A DNA stretch of 63,142 nt, filler included, from Craspedostauros australis (taxonomy: Eukaryota): the NCBI GenBank assembly GCA_030167865.1. It is 17 parts of 17 records of this genome, joined end to end, with 100 filler letters (N's around TTAATTAATTAA, not from the genome) between each part and the next. Parts side by side here need not be neighbours in the genome. Positions count along the whole stretch, not along the records: positions 45,830 to 48,320 come from JALAGF010002315.1; 16 more parts are not named here. One strand, given 5' to 3'. The position numbers and the translations under genes were made by a program. Shown piece after piece: positions 33,381 to 63,142 of this stretch. Position 1 is the first letter of the stretch; each line of letters begins with the position of its first letter. The notes beneath the pieces were generated by a model. The model did not search any database and was not told where the DNA came from. It worked only from the letters and a program-made list of their open reading frames with translations.

Positions 33381-33908
33381 TAATAGAGCCCAAACGTAAT
33401 GGCTGTTGTCTTGTTGGCTGTTGTTAGCTGTAGGGCAGAGGCTTGATTGGCAAGCGGTCCAAACGTGAGTCTTCTGTTCCACAAGTAGTCAATTGAGAAT
33501 ACTGGTAGATGGTGAAGAAACGTGCAGATTATGAGAATAGTGCTATGATTCTTCCCTGCAGGGAGGGTCTCTTGTGGTGTCCTGAGTGACAGTGTGTATG
33601 GGTTGTGTAGCCCAAGTACTGTGGGTCGAGATCCCTTGGCTGAGTTCTGTGAGAGACAAGGGGCAATGATGTGTGTTGCTGAGGCACCGTATCCATGTGT
33701 CAGCGTTTTGCCAAGGATGGGTTTCAGTGACCTGGTTATCGGAACCCTTCTGGTTCCTTGACACGGGTTCCAAAGATCTGCTTCAATGTTCTGGATCGGT
33801 CCCCAAATGTGGGGGCCAGCGAGGTGGGTATTCAATCTACTGGACAGCTGACGGGTCAGATGGTTCATAGTCTCTCTCTCTAAGGTAGGTACTAGTTTAG
33901 CTCTATTA
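33381..33908 (+). mobile_element. 528-bp element with TAATAGAGC...GCTCTATTA ends and a 5-bp TSD (ACATC), copy B
   Basis: ACATC at 33376-33380 and again at 33909-33913. Terminal inverted repeat. Homologous to 20904-21431. Confidence 0.9.
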
Positions 33909-34234
33909 ACATCCAAACCAATCACATATTCATAATTCTTGTAGGTCTAATACGAATAATTAACCATTGAATTTTTGAGTTACATCCTATTTTTAGTTTT
34001 ATGGACTGATGGATGTGCACATTTTTCGATCTCTTTCACGTTTCAGCCTCTTGCTTCCGACTACATCGATCCAAATTAACCCTGTGCTGTTCTTTGTTTC
34101 AGCAAGTTTGTTCCCATTTTGAATTGTTTAGTCTGTTTTTCGTAGCAGCACAAATACGTATAGTGAAGAATTACGCTATTACCGTAGCCCCCACTATCTG
34201 TCAACTTCACTTGTGTTCGGTTCAGCAATTGCAA

Positions 34235-42939: not shown

Positions 42940-43655
42940 TCTGGAGCCTGGTGGTTGATTGCAACAGTGTATGGGTTTGTTGCTGTTCCATCTTCCTTCC
43001 GCGCGAACAAGGAATGGAAGGTGTCATCACTTGGACGAGCGCTGGAGGAGTTGTTGTCCTCGTCGCTCATGGATGACTCAGTGGATGCGCTCGATGCAGA
43101 CCCAACACGATCTGGGAGTTCGATCTCTGCCTTTGGAGGCTTGGTTTGTGGACTCCCGAAGATACCAAGTGGTTTGGCGAGGCCATCAGAGCTGAGCTTC
43201 ATGTTTGTTGTTGGTGTTGTTGGTGCTGTTGGCTGCGAATAGGCAGGGTGGACATGCAGTGTGTGAGGTGATGACACACGAGTCGGTGCAAAACGAACGA
43301 AGGGTGGCTGTAGTGAGAGATCACTCGCGCGGCCACACAAATCGTCAACACACGGATGGGTGCCCTGATGATGTGCCAATTCAACCAGAGATCCTGGGCC
43401 TGGTGCAATGCCGTTTTGTCGGAGAAATTTGAAGTAGCTTTTGATGCTGCGCTTCTTCAGATTTCCAAATGCCCGCCTGCTGAAGGCACGAAGCTCATCA
43501 CCGCGTTTACCAAACATAGCTGGCTGATTGTCGCAGATGTCTGTCGCGAACCTGATCTGGCTTCGTGCCTTGCCTGAACGCTCGACAGCAGAGGCAATCT
43601 GCAGAGATAGAGACTTACTCGTGCTTGGGAGATTGTCGACGGTGTGCATTTGCAT
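42940..43655 (-). CDS. N-terminal part of an ORF-B-like putative transposon accessory protein (copy/allele 1)
   Basis: Overlaps 45830-46533 as the reverse complement and supplies the start MQMHTVDNL. Confidence 0.7.
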
Positions 43656-44384
43656 TGTTCGTAGATTGTGAGCCGATGGTGGTTGTTCGAAGAGTGTGAA
43701 CACAAGTGTTGCGATGGCGTTGTATTTGCCTGATGCGACGCCGTAGAAGCACTACTCTATATTGGTACGCACAACACAGCATTGTCTTACTCCATTGAGC
43801 AGCTCGGTCTGTTTCTCTTTCAGATGTTTGGCGGCGTACGAATGATCAGCGCGGTCTCAAGCATGGATGCGCGCCAACATACAAATTGTCTGCAGCCGCA
43901 AAGTCTGGAGAGAGCAATGATGCTACAATCAGATGCATAGTATGTAGATAGATGCCTTGCTTTGTTGCACACATTGCGGTTGATTCTGTGCCGATGCTTG
44001 CGAAGAGCTCTTGCATTTTCGAACGTTGTGCGCACTACGTTGCACCATGTGAGCCTCTAGTTTGTAGCCTGTCCGGCACGAAATTCAAACACGACTCGGT
44101 AAAAACGGTCACAACATCGCCAGCCGGCCGTTCTATGCTGATTTGTGTAGCAGAAGAGGCCTGTGGGAACTATTTCAACGAACAACAACTGCAGCAACCA
44201 GCCCAGCGTGCGAAAGCAATGACAGTACTAGTAGATATAAGGCGGGGTGTATGAGTGTGTTCATTTCTCGTGCCGTTCTTGATGNNNNNNNNNNNNNNNN
44301 NNNNNNNNNNNNNNNNNNNNNNNNNNNNTTAATTAATTAANNNNNNNNNNNNNNNNNNNNNNNNNNNNNNNNNNNNNNNNNNNN

Positions 44385-45100
44385 TCTGGAGCCTGGTGGT
44401 TGATTGCAACAGTGTATGGGTTTGTTGCTGTTCCATCTTCCTTCCGCGCGAACAAGGAATGGAAGGTGTCATCACTTGGACGAGCGCTGGAGGAGTTGTT
44501 GTCCTCGTCGCTCATGGATGACTCAGTGGATGCGCTCGATGCAGACCCAACACGATCTGGGAGTTCGATCTCTGCCTTTGGAGGCTTGGTTTGTGGACTC
44601 CCGAAGATACCAAGTGGTTTGGCGAGGCCATCAGAGCTGAGCTTCATGTTTGTTGTTGGTGTTGTTGGTGCTGTTGGCTGCGAATAGGCAGGGTGGACAT
44701 GCAGTGTGTGAGGTGATGACACACGAGTCGGTGCAAAACGAACGAAGGGTGGCTGTAGTGAGAGATCACTCGCGCGGCCACACAAATCGTCAACACACGG
44801 ATGGGTGCCCTGATGATGTGCCAATTCAACCAGAGATCCTGGGCCTGGTGCAATGCCGTTTTGTCGGAGAAATTTGAAGTAGCTTTTGATGCTGCGCTTC
44901 TTCAGATTTCCAAATGCCCGCCTGCTGAAGGCACGAAGCTCATCACCGCGTTTACCAAACATAGCTGGCTGATTGTCGCAGATGTCTGTCGCGAACCTGA
45001 TCTGGCTTCGTGCCTTGCCTGAACGCTCGACAGCAGAGGCAATCTGCAGAGATAGAGACTTACTCGTGCTTGGGAGATTGTCGACGGTCTGCATTTGCAT
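44385..45100 (-). CDS. N-terminal part of an ORF-B-like putative transposon accessory protein (copy/allele 2)
   Basis: Contig 44385-45729 equals 42940-44284 apart from about 5 substitutions. Confidence 0.7.
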
Positions 45101-45829
45101 TGTTCGTAGATTGTGAGCCGATGGTGGTTGTTCGAAGAGTCTGAACACAAGTGTTGCGATGGCGTTGTATTTGCCTGATGCGACGCCATAGAAGCACTAC
45201 TCTATATTGATACGCACAACACAACATTGTCTTACTCCATTGAGCAGCTCGGTCTGTTTCTCTTTCAGATGTTTGGCGGCGTACGAATGATCAGCGCGGT
45301 CTCAAGCATGGATGCGCGCCAACATACAAATTGTCTGCAGCCGCAAAGTCTGGAGAGAGCAATGATGCTACAATCAGATGCATAGTATGTAGATAGATGC
45401 CTTGCTTTGTTGCACACATTGCGGTTGATTCTGTGCCGATGCTTGCGAAGAGCTCTTGCATTTTCGAACGTTGTGCGCACTACGTTGCACCATGTGAGCC
45501 TCTAGTTTGTAGCCTGTCCGGCACGAAATTCAAACACGACTCGGTAAAAACGGTCACAACATCGCCAGCCGGCCGTTCTATGCTGATTTGTGTAGCAGAA
45601 GAGGCCTGTGGGAACTATTTCAACGAACAACAACTGCAGCAACCAGCCCAGCGTGCGAAAGCAATGACAGTACTAGTAGATATAAGGCGGGGTGTATGAG
45701 TGTGTTCATTTCTCGTGCCGTTCTTGATGNNNNNNNNNNNNNNNNNNNNNNNNNNNNNNNNNNNNNNNNNNNNTTAATTAATTAANNNNNNNNNNNNNNN
45801 NNNNNNNNNNNNNNNNNNNNNNNNNNNNN

Positions 45830-47092
45830 ACCGTCGACAATCTCCCAAGCACGAGTAAGTCTCTATCTCTGCAGATTGCCTCTGCTGTCGAGCGTTCAGG
45901 CAAGGCACGAAGCCAGATCAGGTTCGCGACAGACATCTGCGACAATCAGCCAGCTATGTTTGGTAAACGCGGTGATGAGCTTCGTGCCTTCAGCAGGCGG
46001 GCATTTGGAAATCTGAAGAAGCGCAGCATCAAAAGCTACTTCAAATTTCTCCGACAAAACGGCATTGCACCAGGCCCAGGATCTCTGGTTGAATTGGCAC
46101 ATCATCAGGGCACCCATCCGTGTGTTGACGATTTGTGTGGCCGCGCGAGTGATCTCTCACTACAGCCACCCTTCGTTCGTTTTGCACCGACTCGTGTGTC
46201 ATCACCTCACACACTGCATGTCCACCCTGCCTATTCGCAGCCAACAGCACCAACAACACCAACAACAAACATGAAGCTCAGCTCTGATGGCCTCGCCAAA
46301 CCACTTGGTATCTTCGGGAGTCCACAAACCAAGCCTCCAAAGGCAGAGATCGAACTCCCAGATCGTGTTGGGTCTGCATCGAGCGCATCCACTGAGTCAT
46401 CCATGAGCGACGAGGACAACAACTCCTCCAGCGCTCGTCCAAGTGATGACACCTTCCATTCCTTGTTCGCGCGGAAGGAAGATGGAACAGCAACAAACCC
46501 ATACACTGTTGCAATCAACCACCAGGCTCCAGAGCGCAATCGCGAATTCCTTGTTGATTTCATCAACGACATCGGTGTCACAAATGGCAACTTTGCAGGC
46601 TTTCATGTCCGTGTTCCTTGCGCCCTGCAGGATGTCAACTTGTGGAGTGCCGAGATCCCCACTCACATTCCTGGCATTGAGCATCGTTCTCTGATGATCC
46701 GCGGCCCAAGCGTGAACGCCTGGATGTGTCGTGACGAGGCATTTTACTGCCACGACGAAGCCGCAGGAACAGCACAGACCGCCCTCTCTGCCACTGTCGC
46801 GAAAGTCCAAGCCTCTCCGGTTCGCAAGTTCTCTTTCTGGTTGTTGATCTTTCCGTCTGACATCAGCCTCGATCTCGCTTTGACCACCAAACACGGTGAC
46901 AACGCGGTTGAGACCAACTGTTCTGTGCGTGACATGGTGGTCACCGAAGGTGATCAAGCGTTCACGATCCATGGTGCGGTTGCGTACTGGAAGCTCGTGT
47001 TGGCAGGTGGTCGTGTGACGCACCAACCAGAGAAGAAGAACGTTGGCTTCTACTTGAGCAGATTGACCGCGAAAGGTGATGAAGCGGCTTAA
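45830..47092 (+). CDS. ORF-B-like protein, homologous by motifs to 58655-59756; 5' end on neighbouring contigs
   Basis: Long open frame with colinear motifs CD......GK.G...R...R.....L.K, F....(I/V)R, D....A.I, P....L and W(K/R)(L/V).(L/I)AG. Confidence 0.75.
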   Translation, partial: TVDNLPSTSKSLSLQIASAVERSGKARSQIRFATDICDNQPAMFGKRGDELRAFSRRAFGNLKKRSIKSYFKFLRQNGIAPGPGSLVELAHHQGTHPCVDDLCGRASDLSLQPPFVRFAPTRVSSPHTLHVHPAYSQPTAPTTPTTNMKLSSDGLAKPLGIFGSPQTKPPKAEIELPDRVGSASSASTESSMSDEDNNSSSARPSDDTFHSLFARKEDGTATNPYTVAINHQAPERNREFLVDFINDIGVTNGNFAGFHVRVPCALQDVNLWSAEIPTHIPGIEHRSLMIRGPSVNAWMCRDEAFYCHDEAAGTAQTALSATVAKVQASPVRKFSFWLLIFPSDISLDLALTTKHGDNAVETNCSVRDMVVTEGDQAFTIHGAVAYWKLVLAGGRVTHQPEKKNVGFYLSRLTAKGDEAA

Positions 47093-47450
47093 CCTGGCGA
47101 AGTCACGACACGGACAGAACAATCACGGCAACTCGCAGCATAACACAAAAACTATTTAGGTACCTTGTACAACGCACACCAACAAGTCTTGCGCCTTCTC
47201 GTTTCCCTCTTCGTTATTGTCACAGTCGCGCAATGATAAAACCTGTCGACCTCCACGAAAACGAACAAACGGTATTGGGCTCTACTTAACATGTACATGA
47301 TTGAGACGTGTGGTGCTTTGCAGGATAAGTAACTTGACTAGAGCATGTGGCTTGTGAATGCCTTATGTTGGGCTACAGTCGTGTTTCGTTGCAGACACTG
47401 TGACACTAAATTGATGGGTCTGCATGTGTGTCTGTTGGTGCGATTGGAGA

Positions 47451-47870
47451 CTACTTCATCGCCCCGTCATGCTTGATCGGCAAATCACTCTTGTCAACGG
47501 TGCGATACTCCGCGTCATCAAGAGCATGGAGTTTTTCGCCTTCTGTCGTCAACTTTTGGAGGAACAAGCTGTTGATGTGGGGAATGTCATGATCAGAAAA
47601 CACGTTGCACTCGCAAAGCGCACGAGCTAGTTTGTCCATCATTTTATCAATGTCTGGATGCTGTTGCAACACAGCTTCGGCAAGATTGGCGGGTGCCTTG
47701 CGGCGCTTCACGTTGTCCTTGTTCAGCTTGGTCTCCTTCAGTGATCCATCATCCATCTTGACGATCACAGGACGCTGACACTTTGTCGGCTTCTTGTCCA
47801 CATTCACCCAGCCAATGTGACCCTTGTACTTTCCTCCAGTGATGGCGATGAGCTTTCCCTTCGTGCCCAT
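47451..47870 (-). CDS. Small KOW-motif protein (139 aa)
   Basis: ACCATGG start. KGKLIAITGGKYKGHIGWV fits the KOW pattern and is followed by a helical region (AEAVLQQHPDIDKMMDKLARAL). Confidence 0.7.
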   Translation of the reverse strand: MGTKGKLIAITGGKYKGHIGWVNVDKKPTKCQRPVIVKMDDGSLKETKLNKDNVKRRKAPANLAEAVLQQHPDIDKMMDKLARALCECNVFSDHDIPHINSLFLQKLTTEGEKLHALDDAEYRTVDKSDLPIKHDGAMK

Positions 47871-50842
47871 GGTGATGCTGCAATTGATGCTGCTGTTGTT
47901 GTTGTGGTGTTGGTGTTGGTGTTGTGATCTGATGAGTGATGTTGTGGGCTTGTCGTTGGATGTGTTGGTTGATCAATCAGCGAACATCGGAAACGCCAGT
48001 ACCAGCGCTCGCTGTGTTCTCCTTTCTGCCGTGGTGCTTCACGACAACGCAACACGAAACTGTTTCGTCATTTTCGCGTGTCTGGGTCCAGTCGCCAAAT
48101 CACGACCATCATTCACATCGACAAACAAAGCACTCTCATTTTGCGTGAAAATACTTCTTGGTTCTGAGCACATGCCATCACTATTCGCTAACTGGGCCTC
48201 GATCCATGACTGTTGTGTCGCCAAGTCGTTGTGCCGTGTTTGGTGAAGTGCTTGTTGCTGCAGGATTGGTCTCTTCGCGGACGAGATCGTCCCTTCTTGT
48301 GACAGACACGTTGCATGAAGNNNNNNNNNNNNNNNNNNNNNNNNNNNNNNNNNNNNNNNNNNNNTTAATTAATTAANNNNNNNNNNNNNNNNNNNNNNNN
48401 NNNNNNNNNNNNNNNNNNNNGGGTGTGCAGAAGTAAGCGCTTTGCGCTGAACGCCATCATCGACATCATCATCATCTGCAGTGCATCAGGCAGGTCGTCT
48501 ACCACGACAGCCAAACAGCCACACGGCAGATCGATCGCCCCTCTTCCCCTATCTCCCACGATGGAGACACTTTTGGGGGACCAGATTTTATGTAACAGCA
48601 ACGTGACAACGAATTGTACGCAAAGTAAAGCTAAATTAGCAAATGAATACTCCGCAACAACACAGGACGAGAAGCCGTCTCACCATTAGCATGGACCAAC
48701 ATACTCCAACGTGTAATAGTTGCGGCACCAGCAAACGGATCGCTCGGAGAATGTCTGCAATAGTGTGTCCGAGATGTATGCATCCGAAACCTTGTGTTGC
48801 TTTTCACAATTCGCCATGTGGGATTCGCCAACCCTGCCGTCCCAGTTGTACTAGAATGTAACAACCCATCTCTGCTGCATGCGCGTCCATGCCATGAGCA
48901 TCTTCCAGTCTTTGTCACTTCCAGTTTCTGCAACTTCCAACTTTTTCCCAAATCGACAGACGATGCTGCCCGGTTCAGATCAGCTATGATATCTGCCACC
49001 AGGGCTCTTCCCTTCATCATCAATCTGCAACTTCCAAGAATAGGACGATGGCATCAATAGACAGCAACACACCAAAATGTATTCTCTCACTTAGTTACTT
49101 CTGCAAGCGGAGTTGCCTGGAAGGCTAGCAGTCTAAGTACACGGCAAGAACGGCTGCGATTCACGCCGGTAACTGGATACCTACTATATGACGCTAAAGC
49201 CACATGTTGGCATTCATCTGGTGATACGAAGATACTCTCTCCGATGCCATACGACTAGAGCAGAGCGGTACTGAAGCTCGTATCATACCATGCAGAATAC
49301 CATACCATTGAAGCGCGGTCTCCATACTCCTCCAGAGAGAAGAGCATTCTTGCTGATGGCCACAAGTACGAGCAGATACGAGTTCGGATCTGGAATGATG
49401 CATCCTATGAGTACTATTAATAATGTATAACAAAATACATATTGGTCCAAGAGCATTCTACAACTCCACGATGCAGGAAGGTACCGAGCTAANNNNNNNN
49501 NNNNNNNNNNNNNNNNNNNNNNNNNNNNNNNNNNNNTTAATTAATTAANNNNNNNNNNNNNNNNNNNNNNNNNNNNNNNNNNNNNNNNNNNNTCTCTGGG
49601 TAATGAAGGGATAGAGTGTGCATGTGGAGGGAAGGCAGTGTGTGCTGATTGAGACATGGACGAAGCTCAACGTCCCAGGGCATGAACGGCAGCAGAACCG
49701 AGAACAAGGCAGTGTGAAAGTCAAGGCGGGGGTGAAGATCTGGATTACCCACCAACCCACAACTCTGGATTTCGACCACTGATCCACAGCCCAGATGAAG
49801 CATAATCATCACCATGCCTACTGCTACCGCGCAATCCTCAACATCTCTTCGCACCCAACCGCCTTCCCCACGTGAAATGTGAGTCTGTCGATCAAGGACA
49901 CGACTGGACAGCAAGCTGAAGCACGACTGGTGATTCCCAACACAATTTGCCCTTCTGCGTCCGCATGCCTTTCGTTTGTAGTCGTAGATTGATGCGAAAA
50001 ATATAAACTGTTTAACTATAAGGTCCAGGCATCTAATATTTCACACATATACCCTCCACAACATAATAGGATGAAATCTGTCTTCGAATTAAAAATCGGC
50101 ACGAATGTACTATCGTATCCTGAATGGGGTCATAACTGCGGAGAGAAAAAAGAGTCTGTTGATGACGTGGTTGCGAGCGTGCATCACTCGGGAAGGAGCA
50201 TTGGGAATAACAGGAACAGGGTTTACCGCAGCTTTCAACTTAACCCTTTACCGTTAATGACAGTCCCAACTCATGTCCCACAGCACACTCGTCCGAGCGG
50301 AGTAGTACTCTTAACGTCTATAACGTCTAATTAACGTCGTGACACACGGGCTCGGTCTCCCCGTCCGACTCATTGGGGTTTTTGACGTGGTTGTGAACGG
50401 GACGGGACGGGACTGATTGGAGTCTTGCGCTTGTGGTCTCCGTGAACTTTCGGCGAAATTCCCGTGTCTTGCAGACGCATTAGTCGCTGTGAAGATCATG
50501 ACGCATGTATTCGGGTATTTGGTACTAGTGACTTTCTTTATGTGTAATATTGGTACGACTGTGACGCAGCCTTTCTTCCGAAGGGCCTTGCATTGGTACC
50601 GACATGAGAGTAATTGCGCAACTCATCAGAACCACCAGATGTTCTGAAGGATGCATGTACGCAGGGATGGATGTATGTATGCGTGGATTGGAAACATCGA
50701 ACCCCTTTTCGGTGCGCTCCTTTGGCTGGCGTCGGTGATGAACGACGCCTTCGTGAGGCATGCGGCATTTGCTGCGTTGGTCCGGCTGCCTGGTTGTTGC
50801 TTCATGGCATGATGCCAGCAGCCCCCCCGACGTTGTCGTGGT

Positions 50843-53800
50843 TCACCCGTTTTTCTTTTGTCTCTTCTTGCGATTCCTGGTTTGCGTTTGGCGTCGAGGA
50901 GGTTGTTTTTTTGCTTTGCTTTTTACCTTGTTTCGTTGGAGGCTTTCGTAGTTGTCCTTCATCATGTCGTGCACGGTTAGCGTGTATGATATCGCTTGTT
51001 TTGATGGGCCGGTCAGATGTGCGGCGTACTCACCTTGTTTTGCAGTTTGTTGACGACCCTGACTCAATGATACCATCTGATTCTTCAGGATGGTGGAATT
51101 TTCCACCACGAAAGGAACGTATGGAAATTCTCCGCCTGTGTAGCCCCAAGCAACTGTGCTTTTCGCACCTGCAACGGTGAAGATCCGGTCTTCGCCAAAG
51201 AGAGGGTCCAGTTCCGGACTCGTCACTGCGATGCCATTCTTCAGGTACTTTAGCATGTCTGGACTTGTGTCCTTTGCGTAATCTTTGGCTTGGATACACA
51301 TCGTTCGCAAGCTGGGGCGCTCGCCGCTTGAGTCGGTTCCCGGCGGCTTCACAAGGAAAGTGACATAGGCGTCTGCGAATTTGCTGTTGCCGTCTGCAAT
51401 GGTGGTGAATGGCAGGACATAAGTATCTTTCACGTCGTCTGTAGTTGTGTCGTTGCTGTCGCCCGTGTCCATCGTGCTTGCGCTGTGAGTGGCAGTGGCC
51501 ATGGTGGAGCCAGAGAGTAGTTTTCCGACCCCTTGGAGCTTGCCGCAAATGCGGAGTAGCTCCTCATCGGCCAATATTGAATGGTTGGATGACAGTGTCG
51601 CTTGCATCTCGTCTGAAGGAACTCGCGCCAACGGAGTTACTTGTAAGGTTCCACCCTCACCAAACTGAGCCTTGTTCATTTTGTTAAATGCAGCACCCTT
51701 CTTTTGTACGACAGCATCCGTGATACGGTTTTGGTCTGCGACTGTCGTGACGGAAGTCATCATGGACTTGTTGAAGTAAACTCCAGGAATGCGCGGCCCT
51801 TCCAAGAGAAAGACAGCATGGGCGCCCTTGAGAGACCAAAATTGATCGCCAACGATTTCTGCCACAGGCTTCGGACCTCCCGTCGTTCCGCATGTGTAGG
51901 AGGAGGAAGGTGACGCAGCGGCTGCAGCAGCCACGGGATTTCCCGCGTTAGTCTTCTTGACGGTCATTCCAACCTTGCGGAGGGCAGAAAAGATATCTGC
52001 TTCCTGTTGGACAGTTGTGCCATGATTGTAGCCAAGAGCGGGAGCAGCAAGGACCCGCCCGTGCTTGTCCTTCTTGACGACCGAGGACGCGCCAATGGCA
52101 GCACTGACCAGCAGCCCGGTGAGAGTCTCGAAGCTGGTCGAGGTTGTCCCCAGGAACGACTTGTCCGTCGGAGCTTGTGTGCCGCCTTGAATGAGCCAAA
52201 GGCAAAGGAGCTGCATGGCACCACTGAGTTCGAATGGTTTTGCAACCGGCTTGTTTTCGGATTTGGCTCGAAATGGTTTGGCAGTCACCAAGCCATATTC
52301 AGCGACCAGCTTCTGCATGATGGTTTTGTTCTTGTCATCCTCGTTGACACGTTCGAAGCTGATCCCGTAATCCATTTCGCTCACGTGAATATCTTTGAGA
52401 CCGTGTGGGAAGGATGTAGTCTGCTGGAAAAGGAGGACTGCGATCGCTCGATGTGCTGTGAGCCGTGCAAAGGACGCTTCGTTCGACAAACTGAACATGC
52501 CGTTGCTTGCCATGAATTTGGCGAAGGTATGGGCAAGAATGGCACCCTGCTCCTGTGCATGAGTATTGGCCTTCTTGTTGGTATTCTCGTTGTTCTTTTG
52601 GAGCGTTTTTGCGCAATTCATGTAGACGGAGATCATCCGCGCGTTGGAATCGACTAGGGCCTTGAGCAGAGGGAACTGCTTGAGCTCGCCATACTGTGGT
52701 ATGATGGGGTCTGTTATGCCTTTTGTGTATGCTTGGCGAAGAATATCGTAGACTTCCTCAGGCTTGGCCTTCGCGGAGGGTTTCAAGTGGATGAAGTTGC
52801 TAGCTACAGATCCCACTGTTCCTTGCGAAGCACCGGTGCCCGCGATCGAGAAGAGGACGTTGACGGTGAGAGTTTTCAAAGGGTCTTCCAAACCTTCCAC
52901 CTTGAGCTTTGCTGGAGTTGCGCCTTCGTCAACCGACCCGACTTGGTGAAGACTTCCGTCAAAGTCGCATCCACACATGATGTATCTCCCCAACGTTGTC
53001 CCAAAATCTTCGTAGTCTCTGATGACGGCCTTAACGAGGTTTGGTTGACTACCTGCTTCGTCGATCGCAACGACAATATGGAGGGTCGCCATGCCATATC
53101 CACCTTGGTCCTTGCGCTTCCCGTCCAGTTCTTTGATGAAGCTGATGAGATCTTTCAATCCAAGAAAGTCGTCTGGTTTGAGTCCTTTGTCCCAAGTGGC
53201 TTTGACGGCATTCGTGAGGGCGCGTAAAGCATCTCTGCGTCGATAGGCTTTCCTGGTATTAGTCCGTTCCGTCTCGTCGTCGACGCCATGGAGGCCTACG
53301 TGGCCATCAGTGATCAACTTCACGTCCGCATTGAGGGTTATCATGATGGTGAAAAGAGCGTCTCTGGTGTATGCGCTCGCTGCGAGCTCCACGGTCTTCC
53401 CGCTACCACTCTCCTGGTGGTACACGCGAACTACGTTTTTCACAAGAGGCTGTTCAGTTTCTGTTACGGGGTGTTCAGAGATGAAGACGGTTGAAGGAGC
53501 CGCGCCGGGATCTCCTCCATGTCGAAACTTGGGCTTGCCGATGTAGTGTGCGTGCCCAGTCCCATTTGGGCCGTTGGTTGTTGAAGTGTACTCCAGACCA
53601 CGAAAGCCATCGGCGTCTTTACTGCGGATCTCCTGCAATCTCTTGAGAATTGCCTGGTGTGGGTTGTTGAGCTCGAGGCCGCTATCGTCGGTGGATGTCC
53701 GCGCAGCGTCGAGGATGCACTCGGGGATTAATCTGTTGACACGAAGGAAGGCCTTGAGCCAGGCCGCCAACGTAAAGTCCCCCACGGTCGTATGGTTGAG

Positions 53801-53998
53801 CCCGCGAAGAGAGTCGAACAGTTGTAGAGCGTCGCCGTCATTGCTTACCTGCGCCAAAATGTATCGGCGAAAAGCAAGTTCGGGTTCGTTTTGGAGATCA
53901 TCCCTCGCTTGGTTCCAGCGCTCTGCACGAAGATACGTCCCATTAAATTCTCTCAGCACACCAACATCTGCTTCTTCCGGCTGTGGAATGTCGTTCAT
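50843..53998 (-). CDS. P-loop NTPase plus C-terminal PD-(D/E)xK-like nuclease, Crinkler/RHS-type architecture (1051 aa)
   Basis: Intronless ORF. Walker A-like ESGSGKT, Walker B VVAIDEAG, AGTG motif, FADAYVTF...CIQAKDY, and a basic NLS-like tail. Confidence 0.75.
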   Translation of the reverse strand: MNDIPQPEEADVGVLREFNGTYLRAERWNQARDDLQNEPELAFRRYILAQVSNDGDALQLFDSLRGLNHTTVGDFTLAAWLKAFLRVNRLIPECILDAARTSTDDSGLELNNPHQAILKRLQEIRSKDADGFRGLEYTSTTNGPNGTGHAHYIGKPKFRHGGDPGAAPSTVFISEHPVTETEQPLVKNVVRVYHQESGSGKTVELAASAYTRDALFTIMITLNADVKLITDGHVGLHGVDDETERTNTRKAYRRRDALRALTNAVKATWDKGLKPDDFLGLKDLISFIKELDGKRKDQGGYGMATLHIVVAIDEAGSQPNLVKAVIRDYEDFGTTLGRYIMCGCDFDGSLHQVGSVDEGATPAKLKVEGLEDPLKTLTVNVLFSIAGTGASQGTVGSVASNFIHLKPSAKAKPEEVYDILRQAYTKGITDPIIPQYGELKQFPLLKALVDSNARMISVYMNCAKTLQKNNENTNKKANTHAQEQGAILAHTFAKFMASNGMFSLSNEASFARLTAHRAIAVLLFQQTTSFPHGLKDIHVSEMDYGISFERVNEDDKNKTIMQKLVAEYGLVTAKPFRAKSENKPVAKPFELSGAMQLLCLWLIQGGTQAPTDKSFLGTTSTSFETLTGLLVSAAIGASSVVKKDKHGRVLAAPALGYNHGTTVQQEADIFSALRKVGMTVKKTNAGNPVAAAAAASPSSSYTCGTTGGPKPVAEIVGDQFWSLKGAHAVFLLEGPRIPGVYFNKSMMTSVTTVADQNRITDAVVQKKGAAFNKMNKAQFGEGGTLQVTPLARVPSDEMQATLSSNHSILADEELLRICGKLQGVGKLLSGSTMATATHSASTMDTGDSNDTTTDDVKDTYVLPFTTIADGNSKFADAYVTFLVKPPGTDSSGERPSLRTMCIQAKDYAKDTSPDMLKYLKNGIAVTSPELDPLFGEDRIFTVAGAKSTVAWGYTGGEFPYVPFVVENSTILKNQMVSLSQGRQQTAKQGEYAAHLTGPSKQAISYTLTVHDMMKDNYESLQRNKVKSKAKKQPPRRQTQTRNRKKRQKKNG

Positions 53999-56429
53999 CT
54001 TGCTGTTGACAGCCGTTCGGCAGAAGTGATTGGAGGCGAAAGGGCGACAGCAACAAGAAACCGTGGAGTTGTGGTGTTGGTGTGAGTGTTGTTATGAGTG
54101 TTGGTGTCATCAATAGCAACAACAATGTTTGATTCTGCTCACCTTGTCTTGTCTTGTTCTGCCTTCGTGAGGACTCCAGTCAGGCTCCGTTCAGCGTTGA
54201 TTCCTTCGGTTGCCTCCGAACAGTGTTGGATCGTGTGCTGTTGTATGCTATCGAGTTGTGCGGTGGCAACAGCCCTGTTCGCTGCCTGCGATGAATCCGT
54301 CTGTGTACGAGTCTGTGTATGTGTCTGTGTGTGCGTGTTTTGTCTCAACGGCTCCGCTAGTGCTCCTCGACCAACCAACACCGCTACGGGGACTGTGTGG
54401 TCTGGAGAAGGCGTGGGTGGTTCTGAAGGTTGAGTGCTGTGGGTAGGGGATGTCGTTGTTGATGCGGATGATAGTGATGATGATGATGACGATGGCTGCG
54501 CTCTCTTGGATGCGTTTGCGAGTGCAGAACAAGGAAGGTCCCAAAAGAGTGATTTACGGGTACGTTCACAGCAGCGCCTTGTTGTTCTTGGTCTCCTCGG
54601 CTTCGTGTCTGTTTGAATCCGTGTGTACGTCTTTGTGCTGTTGCAACTACACGAAGAAGTCTCGCACAACACTCGGGTTTTGCTGCGCTGTCTCTCTTTC
54701 AGTGGTGTCTTCCCCCTTGTTGTTGTGGTGGTGGCAATTCTTACCCATTTTCGGCGGCGCGGGTTTCGGGTTTCGAAGTCCTTCGATGCGAACAGAAGCC
54801 CACGTACAACGATCGTCATTCTGTGTGCTGTCAGAACAAGTTTTGAGGCTGTCTGTGTCACAGTCTGGCCTTTGTCCGTCTGCGTGCACAGACACTCGCG
54901 TCACACTGTGACAACCACCACATTCGAGCACCGACTACCATGACTAACAAATTCGAACCACTGAATGTGCAGATTTAGTGCCAATTCACGAATCTGGCAG
55001 AATCCGAACGATGAGGGTCGATGGACAGACGATGCCGCACAAACCACGAGTAGAGCAACGGCGATGTCCGACTCAATCGACTGTAGCTTTCTTTGTTGAA
55101 TTGTTGAAATGTCCGGGTGCTGTAGACTTGTTGGTAAAAGTAGACTGTTTCTGTTGAGGGTTGGTAACCTTTTCTCTGTCAGTTNNNNNNNNNNNNNNNN
55201 NNNNNNNNNNNNNNNNNNNNNNNNNNNNTTAATTAATTAANNNNNNNNNNNNNNNNNNNNNNNNNNNNNNNNNNNNNNNNNNNNCCAATCCGATTCTGGT
55301 ATTGTCTTTCAAGTCGTAGCGCTTTGATTGATTGTTCCGCAAGTGCGCCATGTCACAGCCAAAAGCAGTAGAGTGTGGCGTTGTGTGGCAGACAACAAAG
55401 GGTTCGTGTGAGGTTGTGTTTCAGGTCGCTGCGCTTTGTCTCGGTCCGTCAAGCTCTGCGCACCACGTCATGTCACCACACAAACAAACACCCATCACAA
55501 AACTCACCATGATGCTTGTTGCAAGTGATATTGCTTTTCGTTCGATCAGTTGGTCTGCAGCTCGTTGCTGCAACTGCACTGCTGTTGCCTCCTCCTTTTA
55601 CTGTTGTTGTTGTTTATACTGATGCTACTGATGGAGTTGATGTCACTGTGGATGGTACTGTGATGTTGATGCTATCCAACTGTTGTGGTAATGATGCAAT
55701 GAGCACGGTCAACACCAACACTGCTGTTGGAGTGTGCTCGTGATTGATGTTGTTGCAAGCTTGCCTGGTGACCCACTGTGCTTGTACGTATCGTGGATCT
55801 AGCTGCTGCTGACGTGATACAGTTGCAGACGATGGTTGCCGCGTTGTCATCTCTTTCGCTCTGTTGGCTCTGATCGGTTGATTGGCCGAGTAGCTCACGA
55901 TCATCACATGTGACTACGAGTACTCGCTGTATTCGACTCTGATCTGCGATACCGTATTGGCGAGCCAACATCGCTGGGCTAGAGCACAGCATACATTCAG
56001 GGATAACTACCATGTCGCCACATGCAGCAGCAACACAACAACGAACAGCTGCATCTGTACCGAACAAGCACTCTCCTCTTGCCATGCCTGTCCACACGAA
56101 TTCGCAGCCTCCCACGGACAGTTGCAACTAATAGAGTATTCAAATTGAAACATAATACAACTATACATACATGCAGAAGAGCATTCGTACAAGGTCTGTT
56201 GTTGCAAGCATGCTTGTGTGCCAGGTCTCGCAGTGTGTGGGATGTCCTGCATGGTGCTGTATTGATGGTTCAGCTGGATTGTGCTTTGCACAGCATCGGG
56301 TGTTGCGAGCGGTGGGTTTTTGGGTGGGCCACATCAAAATGTGGCGTGGATTTGTTGTTGTTCGTGATTTGATGGATTTGTCTCACATGGACAACTGAGA
56401 GGAGGCATGCGAAGGAATCGAGTCATCCA

Positions 56430-56779: not shown

Positions 56780-56805
56780 GCAAGGCACGGGAAATTCGTT
56801 GAAAC
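56780..56805 (+). repeat. Left TIR GCAAGGCACGGGAAATTCGTTGAAAC
   Basis: The reverse complement of 63117-63142 is GCAAGGCACGGGAAAAACGTTGAAAC. Confidence 0.95.
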
Positions 56806-56948
56806 CGTGCCTGGAGAATGGACGTCTGTCCTCCACCCCACCCATGCCGTGTTCGACAGTGTCTCCGATGCGGACAAGTCAAAACCAATTGCAAGATCTT
56901 CATCCATGGAACGTTAAGTAGACGTTATATACGTACTACGAGGTATCT

Positions 56949-57102
56949 CTACTTTCATTGAAAGTAGACTAGTTTCATTGAAAGCGGATTAGTTTCATTG
57001 AACCGAGGTTAGTTTCATTGAACCGAGGTTAGTTTCATTGAACCGAGGTTAGATTCATTGAAACTAGGTTAGTTTCATTGAAAGCGGATTAGTTTCATTG
57101 AA
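56949..57102 (+). repeat. Left subterminal array: 8 units, 20-bp period, core TTAGTTTCATTGAA
   Basis: AGTTTCATTG or a variant at 56951, 56971 ... 57091, separated by variable 6-bp linkers. Confidence 0.97.
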
Positions 57103-57325
57103 TGTTCGCTGAGGTCCAATGATTCGTGTCTTGGCACATGGACCGATTCTGCCACGTTTGGACCTCCATTCTCGCAACGACGAAATCAGGCGCAAAATGA
57201 GCCAAACGTGCTCACAACAACAAATGCTTGCCCATGCTATGTGACACAATCAATATACGTGCCACAATCAGTAGAAGCAGGATTCGAGATACATCCACCA
57301 CAGGACGACTGTTGCTATTGTTATA

Positions 57326-57802
57326 TTAGCGCTTTGCGTTCTGATTGTCCTTTCTGCGTTGCTGCCAATACAAAGACTCGTATTTCGATCGTTTTGCTGC
57401 ATGAAAGTGTTTCCGAAATTGCTCCATAGGGAATTCCTGATAGCATGGCCGCTTTTGGTATAGTTGCTTGGGTGTAAGAGACTTCAAGAGTTCATCTTTG
57501 AAGTCTCTTCTCATCGCGTTCTGAGCTTTGGAACCATCCCATTTCAGCTTGCCTGTTGGCATTGACGTAATTGCCATTTTGCGGAAAGCAATGAGTGCAC
57601 TCTCTGCCTCCATTGCATCCTCCTCGTGCTTCTTCCACTTTTTTCGGAGGCGATTCAAGTTGTTGCGGAAGTTGGTGTACTTCACATTGGAGAAGTCAGC
57701 ATGCCTTTCATAGATTTCCTTGGGCTTCATCTCTTTCGTGATGGCCCCTGCCTTGAGCTCCTCCTCCAATATCTTCTTGGCATCAGACCATGTGAATGGC
57801 AT
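57326..57802 (-). CDS. Transposon accessory ORF-A: 158-aa basic protein made of two tandem helical repeats
   Basis: WSDAKKILEEELKAG..TKEMKPKEIYERHADFSNVKYTNFR is repeated as WDGSKAQNAMRRDFKDELLKSLTPKQLYQKRPCYQEFPMEQFR. The start may lie further upstream. Confidence 0.75.
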   Translation of the reverse strand: MPFTWSDAKKILEEELKAGAITKEMKPKEIYERHADFSNVKYTNFRNNLNRLRKKWKKHEEDAMEAESALIAFRKMAITSMPTGKLKWDGSKAQNAMRRDFKDELLKSLTPKQLYQKRPCYQEFPMEQFRKHFHAAKRSKYESLYWQQRRKDNQNAKR

Positions 57803-58654
57803 CTTGCTTTCTGCGTGACAATGATGCTGCTGATGATGCTGACGATGCTGATGCTGATGCCGATGATGATGCTGGTATCGAACTGTTGCCTTTGCCAATG
57901 CAGTTGCAGGTGTTGCTGCACAGACTGCTGTGAATGCTGGCGTGCAAAGGCTTGCGCACCAATGCCATTGGTGATCGCGATGCTGGAGCTGCTGTTACCT
58001 GGCTGTTGTTGTGTGGCCGTTGCTGCGATTGCGAATGGTGTTCCAGGTGTTGCAGTATGAGCTGACGCAAATTTTTGTGTGCAAATTGATGCTGTTATGA
58101 GTGCAGCTGTGGATGATGTTTCTGATGCTGCTCCAAGTCCGCAGTGCCACAGTGTCGATGTTATAGCTGGCGGACGAGTCACTCCCCTCCCCAGCTTGTG
58201 GCCATCCTCTTCAACTGGGCCAGCAGTGTTGCCACCAGTCTCACTGCCATGGTGTTCTTTGCCGTTGCCTTGGTTGATTCTGTTGCTGGCCGTTCGCGAA
58301 TGATGTGTATTGGTTGATCAATTGATCAATTGTTGGTTACCGTTGCCAGTATTGTTCCCAGTATCGTGTGTGTTAGCCATTGCTGTTGCAGTGATCGTCT
58401 GTTGTTCTGAATTGGTTGTGTTGCGGCTTTGCTTGTCATCGACTGTCGGTGATTGTGTGAGAATTTTGGAGTTCCACGTGTGTCATTGTCCGCGCTCGCA
58501 CGCAAAGTATCGTCCACGATTCGAATTCACGACACCATCCCACAAAGATGTTGACAGTGGCGCAGAAATTTTCGGTCGGTCTTGTGAGTTCGCCCAAATC
58601 ACGAGATGTGGGTTCGCCTTTATTTTGTCGTCACAAAAAGAAGCACAAGCAACC

Positions 58655-60576
58655 ATGAACAAACCAACCACCACCAACACCGCGCCCAGCACTCCGGCTC
58701 AGCGTGCCATCCGCAAACCGCCTTCCTCCCGCTCAAATTTGAAATCGATGGGACCGGAAGTCGACATCGCCATCTTGGACTTCCTCCTTGGTGCAAAACG
58801 CTTCGATAAATTCAAGCTGCACTGCGATCGATTCGAACATCTCCTCGGCAAGCCCGGTTCTGCACAGCGAGACGCTTGCAGACAACGCAAGTACTATCTT
58901 CAGAAGTATCTCGACAAGGCAGGGCTGCAGGCATTGCGCAAGGTGCAGCAGCAGGCAGTGGGTGAGAACGATCCCAATGCACCATGGGCATCAACGCCCA
59001 CTGCCAAATCAAAAACGAAGAGTCTCACAACACCATTAACATCAACATCGGCATCAACCCTCTCACCACAGCGACGACGCAAGATTCTCTTTTCCACCGA
59101 AGCCAAGATGACGACCAACGACGAAACCAGCACCACAATCTCCAACAACGAAGAAGGCGAGCACTACAACATTGATCTCGACCATCCTTTCCATCATGTG
59201 GAGAATACGATGATCTACCAGATGGATGATGTCATCCAGGAGGGCAGATCGTTCGACTGCCTCATCATCCGCAAGCTGTTCGTCGACAAGGATGACATTG
59301 ATCAGATCAAGGCATCCATCTGTGACGAGGGTACCTGCATCAAGATCCAAGAGCCAGCCATCCCATCGTTGATGCTGGAAACCAGCACAGATGCAATGTT
59401 CATGCAGCGAAAGGGAGCTCCTGATGGCAATCTCGCACGTGAGAAGCTCCTTTTCCATAAGCTGGTTAACCGTGAAACCACTAAGGGAGTCGGCTCCAAG
59501 TACACCTACTTCCATTGCCCAGATGGAATGATCCTGAGCGCCAACTTCTTCCAGAATGAAGTCGAGTGCCTCACCAAGACGTACTGTCCAACGCCAAAGG
59601 TGTTGGTCCACAAGGCAACGAATGCCCAGCTCAAGATCCCAACAAATGTGGTGTGCTGGAGAGTTGCAATCGCTGGATTTCATGGCAAGGTCGGGCTGTG
59701 CAACCCCAACACCGAGAACGTCGACGATGCATTCTTTGGGATGCTCTCAAGCACTGGTGAGTAACCATGGAAGTCCCCCAATTCAATTGACTTGTTCGGT
59801 CATGCATTATGATGCAATCACATCTAATCCGCACTACTCTAGAGTACTCACTATCATTTCACCTATCATCTTCTCTCCTTTCGCCATTCTGTGTCCGAGC
59901 AATTGATGATGTAGCAAACCTGACTATCAAAACAGGCGGCGCGGACAAGATGGACGTCGACAGCTCTCCCACCCCGTCCACAGTCCCTTCGAGCAGCAAC
60001 AGCAGCAGCACGCCCCTGCCAGGAACCGGAGTGGCATCCGTGATCGTCCCTCCAAAGATCGACAGAATCTCCGAAGTGGTGAACGCTCCAACCGCTCCAA
60101 AGGCCAACAGCAAGTTTGGAGTGGTGAACACTCCAAGCCCACCACACACTAACCCGACGATCCATGGTGCGAATGCGGGTGAGATGACCTTCCCAGACGC
60201 TCCGGGGTCCGCATTACAAGTCCCTCTCCCTGGTCAAGACGGCTTCGATGGGCTCAACTTTCCGGATGTTCCAGCATCCACGTTGGATACTCCTGCTCCA
60301 AACCAACTTGCCTTGGCCATGGCTGCACCAACACTCGTCCGCGAACCTATTGTTTGTTCTGTTCCTCCCGCTCCTCATACCCTTGTGGTTCGCGGCAACG
60401 ATACCATCATGGGTGATGAAGGGCATCACCTCAAGCGTGCGATTTCGGACATCGGCGTATGCTCACCGAAGAAGTTGAAGCATGCAGAGGATGCCGCTCT
60501 CAATCAATCTACCAAGGAGCAGTCACCCACTGATGACATTGATGAAGATGATCCTCTCAATGCTTACTTCTCTTAG
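58655..60576 (+). CDS. Transposon accessory ORF-B (about 587 aa if spliced 58655-59756 and 59915-60576)
   Basis: ACCATG start. A GTGAGT donor at 59757 and a TAG acceptor at 59912-59914 join in frame to a Pro/Ser-rich second ORF. The unspliced form stops at 59764. Confidence 0.75.
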
Positions 60577-60670
60577 ATATCACAATACCGATACACAGGA
60601 GTCATAAGTTTCATGAAACTACCAACACACACGAGTGCTCTAATAAGTTGAAGAGTATGTCAGTATTTAC

Positions 60671-62561
60671 TTAAATTTCGAATATAGGATGACCACTATC
60701 TAATTCATACTGTATCAACACACAGCAGGCTTCGAAGACACACTGATGTTTGCCAAGATCGTTTCTATAATCGTGGACAAGAGCCTTGAAGTTCTTGATC
60801 CTCCCATTGAAGCTCTCGTGTCGAGCTCTTGCCCTGTTCTTGAATTTCTTCACCGCAGCAGAGTCCATCGGGTTTGGTGCACTGATGGTCGGCTCGTTTT
60901 GATAGCCACCATCAGCAATGACCATTCCTCCTGGTGGAAGTTTGCTCTTGAGGCCATCAGGTTTGCGATACATCACCAAGTCTGATGTAGAAGCAGGGAA
61001 GGGACCATTGATCCAGACAAGCTTGCTGTCTGCTAGTGAGATTCCAAGCTCATAGGTGAGCCCTGCCGAGTGGGACTTGTGGCTATACCACTTCGTCCCG
61101 GGGTCTGTTCTGGGTTCATGAATCTTGATATGGACGCCGTCAACGCTGATGAGGAAGTGCTTGTCGTCCGCGGTGAGTTTCATATTGTGTGGAGGCCAAA
61201 TGACCTGAGAGAAGGAAATAAAAAGAAACGAAGTGCAACAGAAGATTGTGTCAGGATAGAATATGAAGCAAAGTGGCATCGCAGTGTGCACAGTGGCTTA
61301 CCTTTCTTGGAAGCAAGGCTTGGATTGCTGGTAAATATGACCAGATGAGAGACCGAATTGTCTTCTCATCCAAGCCCCAACGCCCTGCCATGGCATGCTC
61401 CGTACTGTAGGCTTTGAGCCAGTTCAGAACAACGAATGTATCATATGGGCGAGGGTGATTGACTTTGTGTGCTGTCTCAATATTGAATAGATCAATAAAG
61501 AGACAGCCAAAGCTCTCTGGACTCAAACCGTACATCGCTGAAAATCGATTCTGTCTGGTCCGTTCTGCCATTCTGGTTTGTCGGAAGCCAGCATATTGCA
61601 ACCCAAGCTCCAGAATATCATCGCTTGACAAGAAGTCAATTTCAGTTGTGTTGTTGGATGCTTCGTTGTGGGGTGGCTGATTGATGAATCGATCATTTTG
61701 TTGATTGCCTTGGCTGATACCTTGGTTGGTTGGTTGCCTTGCAGGCCTTCCCCTTCGTTGCATATTTGGTTGATTGGCTGCATCGGTTGGTTGATTGGGT
61801 TGGCTGGTTGCTCGGTTGGTTGGTCGCTTCGCTGGCCTGCTCCTCGGCTGCGTGCTTTTCTGGTTGCCTGTATCGGTTGGTTGATTGGGTTGGCTGGTTG
61901 CTCGGTTGGTCGTTCGCTTCACTGGCCTGCTCCTTGGCTGCGCGCTTTTCTGGTTGCCTGTATCGGTTGGTTGATTGGGTTGGCTGGTTGCTCGGTTGGT
62001 TGGTTGCCTCACAGGCCTCCCCCTTCGTTTCATATTTGGTTGATTGCCTGTATCGGTTGGTTGGTTGGCTGCCTTGCTGGTCAGTTGGTTGGTTGGTTGC
62101 CTTGCAGTCCTTCCCCTTCGTTGCATATTTGGTTGATTGCTTGTATCGGTTGGTTGATTGGGTTGGCTGGTTGCTCGGTTGGTTGGCTGCTTCACTGGCC
62201 TGCTCCTCGGCTGCGTGCTTTTCTGGTTGCCTGTATTGGTTGGTTGATTGGGTTGGCTGGTTGCTCGGTTGGATGGCTGCTTCACTGGCCTGCTCCTCGG
62301 CCGTGCGCCTTTCTGGTTGCCTGTATCGGTTGGTTGATTGGTTGCCTTGCTGGTTGCTCGGCTGGTTGGCTGCTTCACTGGCCTGCTCCTCGGCTGCGCG
62401 CTTTTCTGGTTGCCTGTATCGGTTGGTTGATTGGTTGCCTTGCTGGTTGCTCGGTTGGACAGTCGCCTCACAGGCTTGCTCTTCTGCTCCATTCTTGACT
62501 GATTGCCTTCACTGGTAGTTTGGTTGATCAGTTGCTTTGCTGGTCTGCCTCTGCATTGCAT
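60671..62561 (-). CDS. DDE_Tnp_4-type transposase (about 597 aa); exons 62561-61302 and 61204-60671
   Basis: HTH-like LNWLKAYSTEHAMAGRWGLDEKTIR; a 97-bp phase-0 GTAAGC...TCAG intron; catalytic SVDGVH, IADGGY and RARHESFNGRIKNF. No stops. Confidence 0.92.
61705..62480 (-). repeat. Coding tandem repeat, 8 full units of 90/93 bp in the transposase N-terminus
   Basis: Units read QPTDTGNQ(KSAQPRSRP/PNMQRRGRP)...RATSQPN and all are in frame. Confidence 0.92.
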
Positions 62562-62810
62562 GCTTGGCTGATCGTTGTCGTTGTTTGGTTGAATGCGTGG
62601 GCTGGTTCTTGTTCTCCGTCTCCTGTTCGAGTAGTCGGCTGCGAAGCGGAGTGATGTGACGGGGATGGCGAGTGCTTGGCTGCGTGTTGATGTTCATCAT
62701 GTTGTCATTGTTTTGGAACAGTGATTCATTGCGTTCCGTTGCAGTGGATGACGTTGAGTCTTGACACGATTTTCTGAGTCTTGTTTTCCTCATTCAGTCT
62801 TGGTCCAGCA

Positions 62811-62964
62811 TTAGTTTCATTGAGACGTCATTAGTTTCATTGAGACATCATTAGTTTCATTGAAACATCATTAGTTTCATTGAAACGTCATTAGTTTCAT
62901 TGAATCGTTATTAGTTTCATTGAATCGCTGTTAGTTTCATTGAATCGCTGTTAGTTTCATTGAA
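62811..62964 (+). repeat. Right subterminal array: 8 units, 20-bp period, core TTAGTTTCATTGA(A/G)
   Basis: TTAGTTTCAT at 62811, 62831 ... 62951. Confidence 0.97.
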
Positions 62965-63116
62965 TCAGTTGACTGTAGTTGGAGTTCGCTTTTTAAAATA
63001 TTGGCGTTAAAGGCGTTATCCTCAAACCAATGAAAACAATCGATTGAGTCGAGCAGCAATATCGATTCAGCTGTTCGCGACAAATGGTCGTAGTAGTCGA
63101 AGACGCTCGAAGTTGT

Positions 63117-63142
63117 GTTTCAACGTTTTTCCCGTGCCTTGC
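63117..63142 (-). repeat. Right TIR
   Basis: Inverted match to 56780-56805. Confidence 0.95.

Follow-up and report, generated by a model that had tools for sequence, protein, structure and literature searches.

Is the open reading frame (ORF) at 45830-47092 of this DNA related to a transposon protein, and does its gene itself lie in a transposon? The window, that is, the whole stretch analysed here, comprises 63,142 nucleotides (nt) from Craspedostauros australis and is a chain of 17 short contigs with runs of N and the spacer TTAATTAATTAA between them. We compared the protein of the 45830-47092 ORF, here called P0001, with the reference protein ORF-B, encoded at 58655-59764 inside a PIF/Harbinger element. 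A preliminary description had matched the two by eye, proposed that they define an uncharacterised two-domain family and placed the P0001 gene in the interior of a second element of the same group. On balance, and by a modest degree, we favour the reading that P0001 is a very diverged paralogue of ORF-B in a two-domain family with an adaptor role, encoded at a stand-alone locus. The remote homology seen by eye was probably largely right, and the transposon inference drawn from it probably was not. All 12 peptides on which that description relied are present and colinear, six of P0001 at 45938-47008 and six of ORF-B at 58823-59677 (both on the plus strand), and its block pairs are the same pairs that MAFFT and hhalign give.

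ORF-B belongs to a real, unnamed and undescribed two-domain family. A phmmer search with ORF-B, run as a full scan of 1.84 billion representatives, returned 17 proteins at E ≤ 1e-3, three of them at E ≤ 1e-10 and none at E ≤ 1e-30. These relatives, which are 22-38% identical to ORF-B and mostly 280-420 amino acids long, align over both domains, in agreement with the family that had been proposed around ORF-B. Of the 17 proteins, 15 had an N-domain and 14 a C-domain that matched closely enough to be used in the domain profiles. Against a family profile built without it, ORF-B scored 137.6 bits. The rows of this unnamed family are P0002 and P0004-P0019. P0003, an outside relative of 800 amino acids, has the N-domain only, in at least five tandem copies with no C-domain, and the N-domain is therefore an independent module. 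One of these copies passes the Pfam family DUF7083 (PF23309) with 41.1 bits against a cut-off of 27, and ahead of the N-domain copies lies an RNase H1 N-terminal (Cauli_VI) domain that just misses its threshold (20.0 against 21); P0011 shows a weak DUF7083 match over the same profile span (E 0.14). Ten relatives were looked up; they come from metagenome and genome collections and are called hypothetical. The source label of P0013, 'RNA-binding protein with TRAM domain', had no Pfam support and was not adopted. Scans of metagenomes, viruses and prokaryote genomes for the DNA context of the 17 relatives gave pattern matches only, none of which was confirmed by tblastn. No paper was found under the names DUF7083 or PF23309, and none of the papers found on Harbinger, diatom and transposase together describes such an ORF, to judge by titles and abstract openings.

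Comparison of P0001 with this family indicates that it is most likely an extremely diverged member. A hidden Markov model (HMM) built without P0001 gave it 17.7 bits, compared with 9.3 for the best of 2000 shuffles; when both P0001 and ORF-B were left out, the score was 16.7 bits and the best of 2000 shuffles reached 9.7. P0001 was the best non-self match among the 254 window ORFs of at least 90 amino acids (E 3.2e-5 to 4.5e-5), and likewise among the 1274 six-frame window ORFs of at least 30 amino acids (E 9.7e-5; the next match scored 9.3 bits). The HMM-HMM alignment suggested in the preliminary description gave a clear result, with hhalign aligning the family to P0001 at P 2.1e-5, a score that sums both domains; at a relaxed display threshold, profile columns 19-355 were paired with P0001 residues 8-415. 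At 49 conserved columns the consensus residue is found 15 times in P0001 and 30 times in ORF-B. The opposite possibility, that the resemblance is due to chance and the 45830-47092 ORF is an unrelated orphan gene, draws on the non-significant pairwise statistics reported below, on the lack of database relatives for P0001 itself, and on a 10.2-bit N-domain match at 57082-57426 (plus strand), a 24-residue basic motif in a non-coding-looking frame that we treated as noise and that shows that short basic motifs can score. Since none of the 2000 whole-protein shuffles and none of 5000 N-domain shuffles reach the observed scores, and the E value among the 1274 ORFs, the hhalign P value and the in-register match of the P0001 N-domain to many independent members all speak against it, we regard chance as highly improbable.

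The two domains were then considered separately. The N-domain of P0001 is very probably homologous to that of the family, to judge by profile scores and alignment register. The family N-domain is helical, about 65 amino acids long, and has the motif F-x4-C-x6-FG-x-PGS-x-LR-x5-RR-x-YL; P0001 is identical at 6 of its 13 conserved columns (F32, C37, F44, G45, R52 and R56), and its RR-x-YL part is degraded. An N-domain HMM built without ORF-B gave P0001 15.6 bits, hhalign on this domain alone gave P 1.1e-4, and BLASTP paired the P0001 N-domain in register with those of P0007 (36.5% over 52 amino acids), P0009, P0021, P0017, P0003 and P0010. The linker that follows, which had been described as rich in serine, threonine and proline (S/T/P), is indeed so in both proteins: the S+T+P fraction is 0.37 in P0001 and 0.48 in ORF-B, compared with 0.18 and 0.16, respectively, outside the linker.

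The C-domain of P0001 is probably homologous to the family C-domain as well, as suggested mainly by its alignment register. The same register (residues 226-394) was obtained from MAFFT, hhalign, BLASTP and by eye, with BLASTP pairing P0001 residues 227-393 and P0004 residues 163-332. In HMMER, the C-domain of P0001 scored 4.5 bits, which 4 of 5000 shuffles reach, and hhalign on the C-domain alone, with ORF-B included, gave P 0.025, reached by 2 of 233 shuffles. Family C-domains carry the motifs P-x2-N-P-x-G, K-P-x2-D-x2-D, D-G-x-G-I-x3-E-P-x-I-P, F-P-x-G-x-T-C and W-x3-I, and P0001 keeps 7 of about 33 conserved columns (P234, N237, D268, P293, F341, P342 and W387). The earlier proposal of two shared domains therefore stands firmly for the N-domain, whereas for the C-domain, in which five of the six by-eye blocks lie, the signal is weak when taken alone. 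That both domains of P0001 are homologous to the family is, on this evidence, a claim we make with reasonable confidence.

Structures were predicted for both proteins. In the AF2 model of ORF-B, made with the 17-row family alignment, the N-domain forms four helices at residues 35-103, with a predicted local distance difference test score (pLDDT) of 83-95; residues 105-165 are disordered, and a beta-rich region follows at 170-341, in which the C-domain blocks of the first half have pLDDT 79-90. A helical insert at about 245-280 is poorly modelled, and a terminal helix lies at the chain end. When ORF-B was submitted to a wide, alignment-independent structural search, the first 21 rows were small heat-shock (alpha-crystallin) or CS-domain chains, and among the best 50 matches listed all 38 that fell on the C-domain were of these kinds (Z 5.1-7.4). 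The best core fits of the C-domain had a root-mean-square deviation (rmsd) of 2.3-3.0 A over 80-87 residues, for instance 2.4 A over 80 of 87 residues for 4rzk_B (Z 7.2) and 2.3 A over 81 of 99 for 3eud_A (Z 6.8). The family C-domain is probably, as far as these models go, an HSP20/CS-like beta-sandwich, and it is the homogeneity of the match list, rather than the Z values, that leads us to this fold. The model of P0001, which likewise uses the family alignment, has the N-domain helices and recovered the same HSP20/CS set with Z 4.5-5.5.

Several results weigh against reading P0001 as a diverged, adaptor-like paralogue of ORF-B. Direct BLASTP comparison of the two proteins was not significant (the N block reached E 0.24, the last C-terminal block 0.71), and tblastn did not detect the match. 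In Smith-Waterman alignments, the whole-protein score had a z of 2.5 and was reached by 12 of 500 shuffles, the N-domain score by 21 of 500 and the C-domain score by 63 of 500, so that pairwise alignment with shuffling, a check that the preliminary description had put forward, was not above chance; the distant homology which it claimed is thus upheld by the family profile and not by the pair. With ORF-B left out, the C-domain profile gave P0001 only 2.5 bits, third of the 254 and seventh of the 1274 ORFs, behind unrelated frames, and hhalign on the C-domain gave P 0.098. At four columns where outside members never vary, those of G348, D379, G393 and P405, P0001 has lost the family residue. In a 13-row tree its branch measures 4.09 changes per site, and P0001, ORF-B and P0011 all sit on long branches with unresolved placement; P0003, P0007, P0008, P0015, P0016, P0018 and P0020-22 were left out of this tree as a repeat protein, fragments or near-duplicates.

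On the structural side, all Z values are below 8, a range that the tool calls common, and the N-domain rows of ORF-B (PadR-type winged helix or winged helix-turn-helix, BrxA, Reb1; Z 5-6) do not rise above the noise that helical models produce. With a mean pLDDT of 54.6 the P0001 model is a poor one, and since the family alignment went into it, its fold match is not independent. Of the AlphaFold and Foldseek route proposed earlier, the Foldseek step gave no match at E ≤ 0.001, either in PDB or in BFVD. DUF7083, HSP20 and CS gave no Pfam match for P0001 or ORF-B even at E ≤ 10. The ten relatives looked up fall in clusters of 1-2 members on 1-3 contigs, and the outside relatives therefore look more like single-copy genes than like a multicopy transposon. 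Other searches were null: a word-indexed protein search with P0001, ORF-B and P0001 residues 222-420 found nothing at E ≤ 1e-3, the ESM Atlas gave no usable match for P0001 or ORF-B, Pfam had no match for either, and the family profile had 0 matches among PDB sequences.

The C-domain figures raise the question of whether only the N-terminal helical domain is common to the two proteins, with the P0001 C-terminal region unrelated and its colinear blocks a product of chance. The scores of 2.5-4.5 bits, no better than those of some unrelated window ORFs, the hhalign P of 0.025-0.098, the few conserved columns kept and the loss of the four invariant ones, and the 63 shuffles of 500 would all be expected if this were so. 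The register, however, is the same by eye, in MAFFT, in hhalign with and without ORF-B and in BLASTP against P0004; the observed scores are reached by only 4 of 5000 and 2 of 233 shuffles; and domain order, linker, length and terminal helix all agree. We consider a shared N-domain alone improbable, and homology of P0001 to the family over its length the better account.

We next turn to the locus. The contig at 45830-48320 begins inside the P0001 gene, and the opening 704 nt of this contig are matched exactly, in reverse complement, by the opening 704 nt of 42940-44284 and likewise by those of 44385-45729 (blastn: 42940-43643 against 45830-46533, 100% over 704 nt). The latter two contigs are 99.6% identical and differ by 5 single-nucleotide polymorphisms (SNPs), the first of which lies exactly at the end of the 704-nt overlap. 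Because the overlap is exact and the SNPs start where it ends, the three contigs are one locus and not three independent sightings: a locus of about 3.1 kb, present as two alleles or near-identical copies. The homologue had been placed on separate contigs, a description that needs this correction; the first two P0001 peptides are also found on 42940-44284 and 44385-45729 (minus strand). The full P0001 ORF has about 437 codons and is free of stops, running from a probable ATG on the allelic contigs (minus strand) through 45830-47089 to the TAA at 47090-47092.

Placing the interior of a second Harbinger-type element at 42940-48320 found no support in the available sequence. Joined to the idea that the family may be an old core component of this transposon group, it gains some appeal from ORF-B being transposon-borne, from the small size of the locus, past whose contig ends terminal inverted repeats (TIRs) and a transposase could lie, and from a weak 15-mer TIR resemblance with 3 mismatches near the outer end of the allelic contigs. 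That 15-mer, near 44264 and 45709, does not extend into a TIR and was rejected. Within the 3.1 kb we found no DDE_Tnp_4 or other transposase ORF, no resemblance, beyond the ORF itself, to the Harbinger contig, no inverted repeats between the flanks or TIR-like ends, no match to the terminal 300 nt of the element and no copy of its subterminal motif; the 5 SNPs fit alleles rather than dispersed copies, and the neighbouring ORF has no counterpart in the element. The combined reading is very unlikely. As far as can be read from its sequence, the P0001 gene is a stand-alone cellular locus outside any recognisable transposon, so that only one of the two window members of the family (ORF-B) is transposon-borne. 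The neighbouring ORF just mentioned, at 47451-47870 on the minus strand, is convergent with the P0001 gene and encodes 139 amino acids with an N-terminal G-x-KYKG-x-G-W-V motif; it has a faint KOW match (E 0.0053, under the cut-off) and no relatives within the window.

ORF-B, for its part, lies in a complete PIF/Harbinger element of 6363 bp that makes up the contig 56780-63142. Its TIRs stand exactly at both contig ends, and this coincidence suggests a collapsed repeat. The transposase matches DDE_Tnp_4 (PF13359) at E 2.4e-15, with 57 bits against a cut-off of 24.8. Two arrays of a 20-bp unit flank the genes; their TTTCATTGAAA motif has 22 matches in the window against 2.0 expected, 21 of them in the Harbinger contig and 0 in 42940-48320. 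The element carries three ORFs beyond the transposase, ORF-B among them, and none matches Pfam at E ≤ 0.1. According to PMC2836001, PIF/Harbinger elements require two proteins, and according to PMC9710019 the Harbinger3_DR helper binds a 9-bp subterminal motif. Since a second protein is needed and no extra ORF is Myb-like by Pfam, ORF-B is a candidate helper, as are the other two ORFs. A complex prediction of ORF-B with two transposase pieces, made without the family alignment, scored 0.00 and is evidence neither way.

The other two ORFs of the element are distinct from ORF-B. The one at 57326-57898 (minus strand) encodes 190 amino acids, within which a motif of about 60 amino acids, W being its first residue, occurs twice; Pfam gives no match, and this ORF is a candidate helper protein of the element in place of ORF-B. 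The S/T/P-rich ORF of 255 amino acids at 59809-60576 (plus strand) directly follows ORF-B on the same strand, also with no Pfam match; the family alignment ends at the ORF-B stop, which means that this ORF does not continue ORF-B. Within the transposase ORF, the N-terminal part contains a coding tandem repeat at 61700-62508 (8.9 copies at period 90, or alternatively a period of 273), whose product is rich in N, Q, P and T.

The strongest competing explanation is that of an ordinary cellular gene family of this eukaryotic lineage, in which ORF-B would be a host gene captured as a passenger and P0001 a diverged host paralogue, neither with a role in transposition. The small clusters of the ten outside relatives, the lack of transposon features around P0001, the two further unexplained ORFs, either of which could be the true helper, and the failure of Pfam to detect a Myb/SANT domain in ORF-B are all consistent with it. 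It accounts less well for the intact state of ORF-B inside a complete, TIR-bounded element whose transposase is apparently functional, and for the fact that the element has no other ORF in which an obligatory helper can be recognised. We take this explanation as a serious one, if not quite the one to be expected, and prefer the view of P0001 as a diverged paralogue in an adaptor family.

In the preferred model, P0001 and ORF-B would form part of a small family, as yet unnamed, whose proteins have three parts: a basic N-domain of four helices and about 65 amino acids, related to DUF7083 through P0003; a disordered S/T/P-rich linker; and a C-terminal beta-sandwich of about 180 amino acids with a helical insert, a short helix at its end and a predicted fold of the HSP20/CS type. 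We only infer that these proteins bind DNA and act as adaptors: nucleic acid would be bound by the N-domain, and the beta-sandwich, in the manner of CS and alpha-crystallin domains, would serve for contacts with other proteins or with itself. ORF-B might then be the second, helper protein of the Harbinger element, binding the 20-bp subterminal arrays and working with the transposase, a role that the analysis makes conceivable and that we hold with more doubt than conviction. Bolder still is the idea that a PIF/Harbinger lineage of microbial eukaryotes swapped the canonical Myb-like helper for a two-domain protein, whose DUF7083-type domain would read the 20-bp arrays and whose CS/alpha-crystallin-like sandwich would either form oligomers or bring in the transposase or a chaperone, P0001 and the metagenomic relatives being domesticated descendants; this we offer as speculation with little likelihood. 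If the family does serve as helper of this Harbinger lineage, helpers in this superfamily need not be Myb-like, and DUF7083 would gain its first functional context, with TTTCATTGAAA arrays as DNA target. Should it be no more than a host family of which a transposon picked up one copy, what remains is a modest gain in annotation, namely a new domain architecture (DUF7083-like plus CS/alpha-crystallin-domain-like) for about 20 hypothetical proteins of poorly sampled eukaryotes.

Table 1. Features of the P0001 locus and of the Harbinger element, in window coordinates.
Feature	Position	Strand	Evidence and remarks
Intact ORF of P0001, last 420 codons and TAA stop	45830..47092	+	Stop-free translation, family profile, hhalign
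N-domain of P0001, helical, about residues 12-95	45863..46114	+	HMM, hhalign, BLASTP, model helices, conserved columns
S/T/P-rich linker of P0001, residues 94-219, predicted disordered	46109..46486	+	S+T+P 0.37 against 0.18 elsewhere; pLDDT <50 nearly throughout
C-domain of P0001, residues 223-420, beta-rich with helical insert and C-terminal helix	46496..47089	+	MAFFT, hhalign, HMMER, model
5' part of P0001 gene, allele or copy 1	42940..43655	-	Probable ATG 43655-43653; blastn, ORF listing, SNP positions
5' part of P0001 gene, allele or copy 2	44385..45100	-	Probable ATG 45100-45098; blastn, SNP positions
ORF-B, 369 codons from ATG, clear family member	58655..59764	+	phmmer, profile, AF2 model
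Left TIR, 26 nt, at contig start	56780..56805	+	Arms 92% complementary; GCAAGGCACGGG-type
Right TIR, 26 nt, at contig end	63117..63142	-	Arms 92% complementary
Left subterminal array, 7.5 copies of 20-bp unit, core TTTCATTGAAA; candidate protein-binding sites	56953..57102	+	Tandem Repeats Finder (TRF), motif count
Right subterminal array, 7.8 copies of 20-bp unit	62809..62964	+	TRF, motif count
PIF/Harbinger transposase gene, two overlapping frames	60671..62561	-	Intron or frameshift near 61251-61291; DDE_Tnp_4 part 60671-61291

Other parts of the window yielded further observations. A TIR-like sequence at 50458-50472 (minus strand) has 2 mismatches over 15 nt and extends to about 30 nt, and a 24-nt match to the subterminal region of the element lies at about 50314-50337, at the same distance from it as in the element; by its sequence, 50314-50472 has the look of an end of a related element that is cut off where the contig 49593-55184 starts. 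A 530-bp repeat is shared at 85.7% identity by two contigs (20904-21431 and 33381-33908), and the ORFs at 21020-21430 and 33383-33946 (both on the minus strand) are 70.8% identical over 137 amino acids. For an open frame of 1082 amino acids at 50846-54091 (minus strand), Pfam has nothing at E ≤ 0.001. Other contigs encode mitochondrial-carrier, RING and ZZ domains, which mark the window as eukaryotic.

How the family compares with known systems can be set out domain by domain. With DUF7083, for which the Pfam entry gives no known function, the likeness consists in the one P0003 N-domain copy above the cut-off and the weak match of P0011; P0001, ORF-B and 13 other members scanned differ in having no match at E ≤ 10, so that the link is transitive, via P0003 only. 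With HSP20/alpha-crystallin and CS proteins (p23, Sgt1, Shq1, NudC), the likeness is that, among the matches listed, the predicted fold of the ORF-B C-domain pairs with no other kind of chain. The differences are that none of 16 members scanned has either Pfam model listed at E ≤ 10, that no PDB sequence matches, and that extra strands are present in addition to a helical insert, which measures about 35-45 residues; the likeness is not meant to imply activity as a chaperone or co-chaperone.

The third comparison is with the ORF1/Myb-like helpers of PIF/Harbinger elements, such as those of Harbinger3_DR and Ping. ORF-B differs from them in having no Myb, SANT or MADF match in Pfam, and in its HSP20/CS-like C-terminal beta-sandwich (as predicted), which is not known from Harbinger helpers. 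The P0001 gene differs in that, within its 3.1-kb locus, it does not lie between TIRs with a DDE_Tnp_4 gene. ORF-B resembles these helpers in being a second, non-transposase ORF between TIRs together with DDE_Tnp_4, and in its small, basic, helical N-domain. The element that carries it also has arrays of short subterminal motifs of the kind that such helpers bind, as described in PMC9710019 and PMC2836001.

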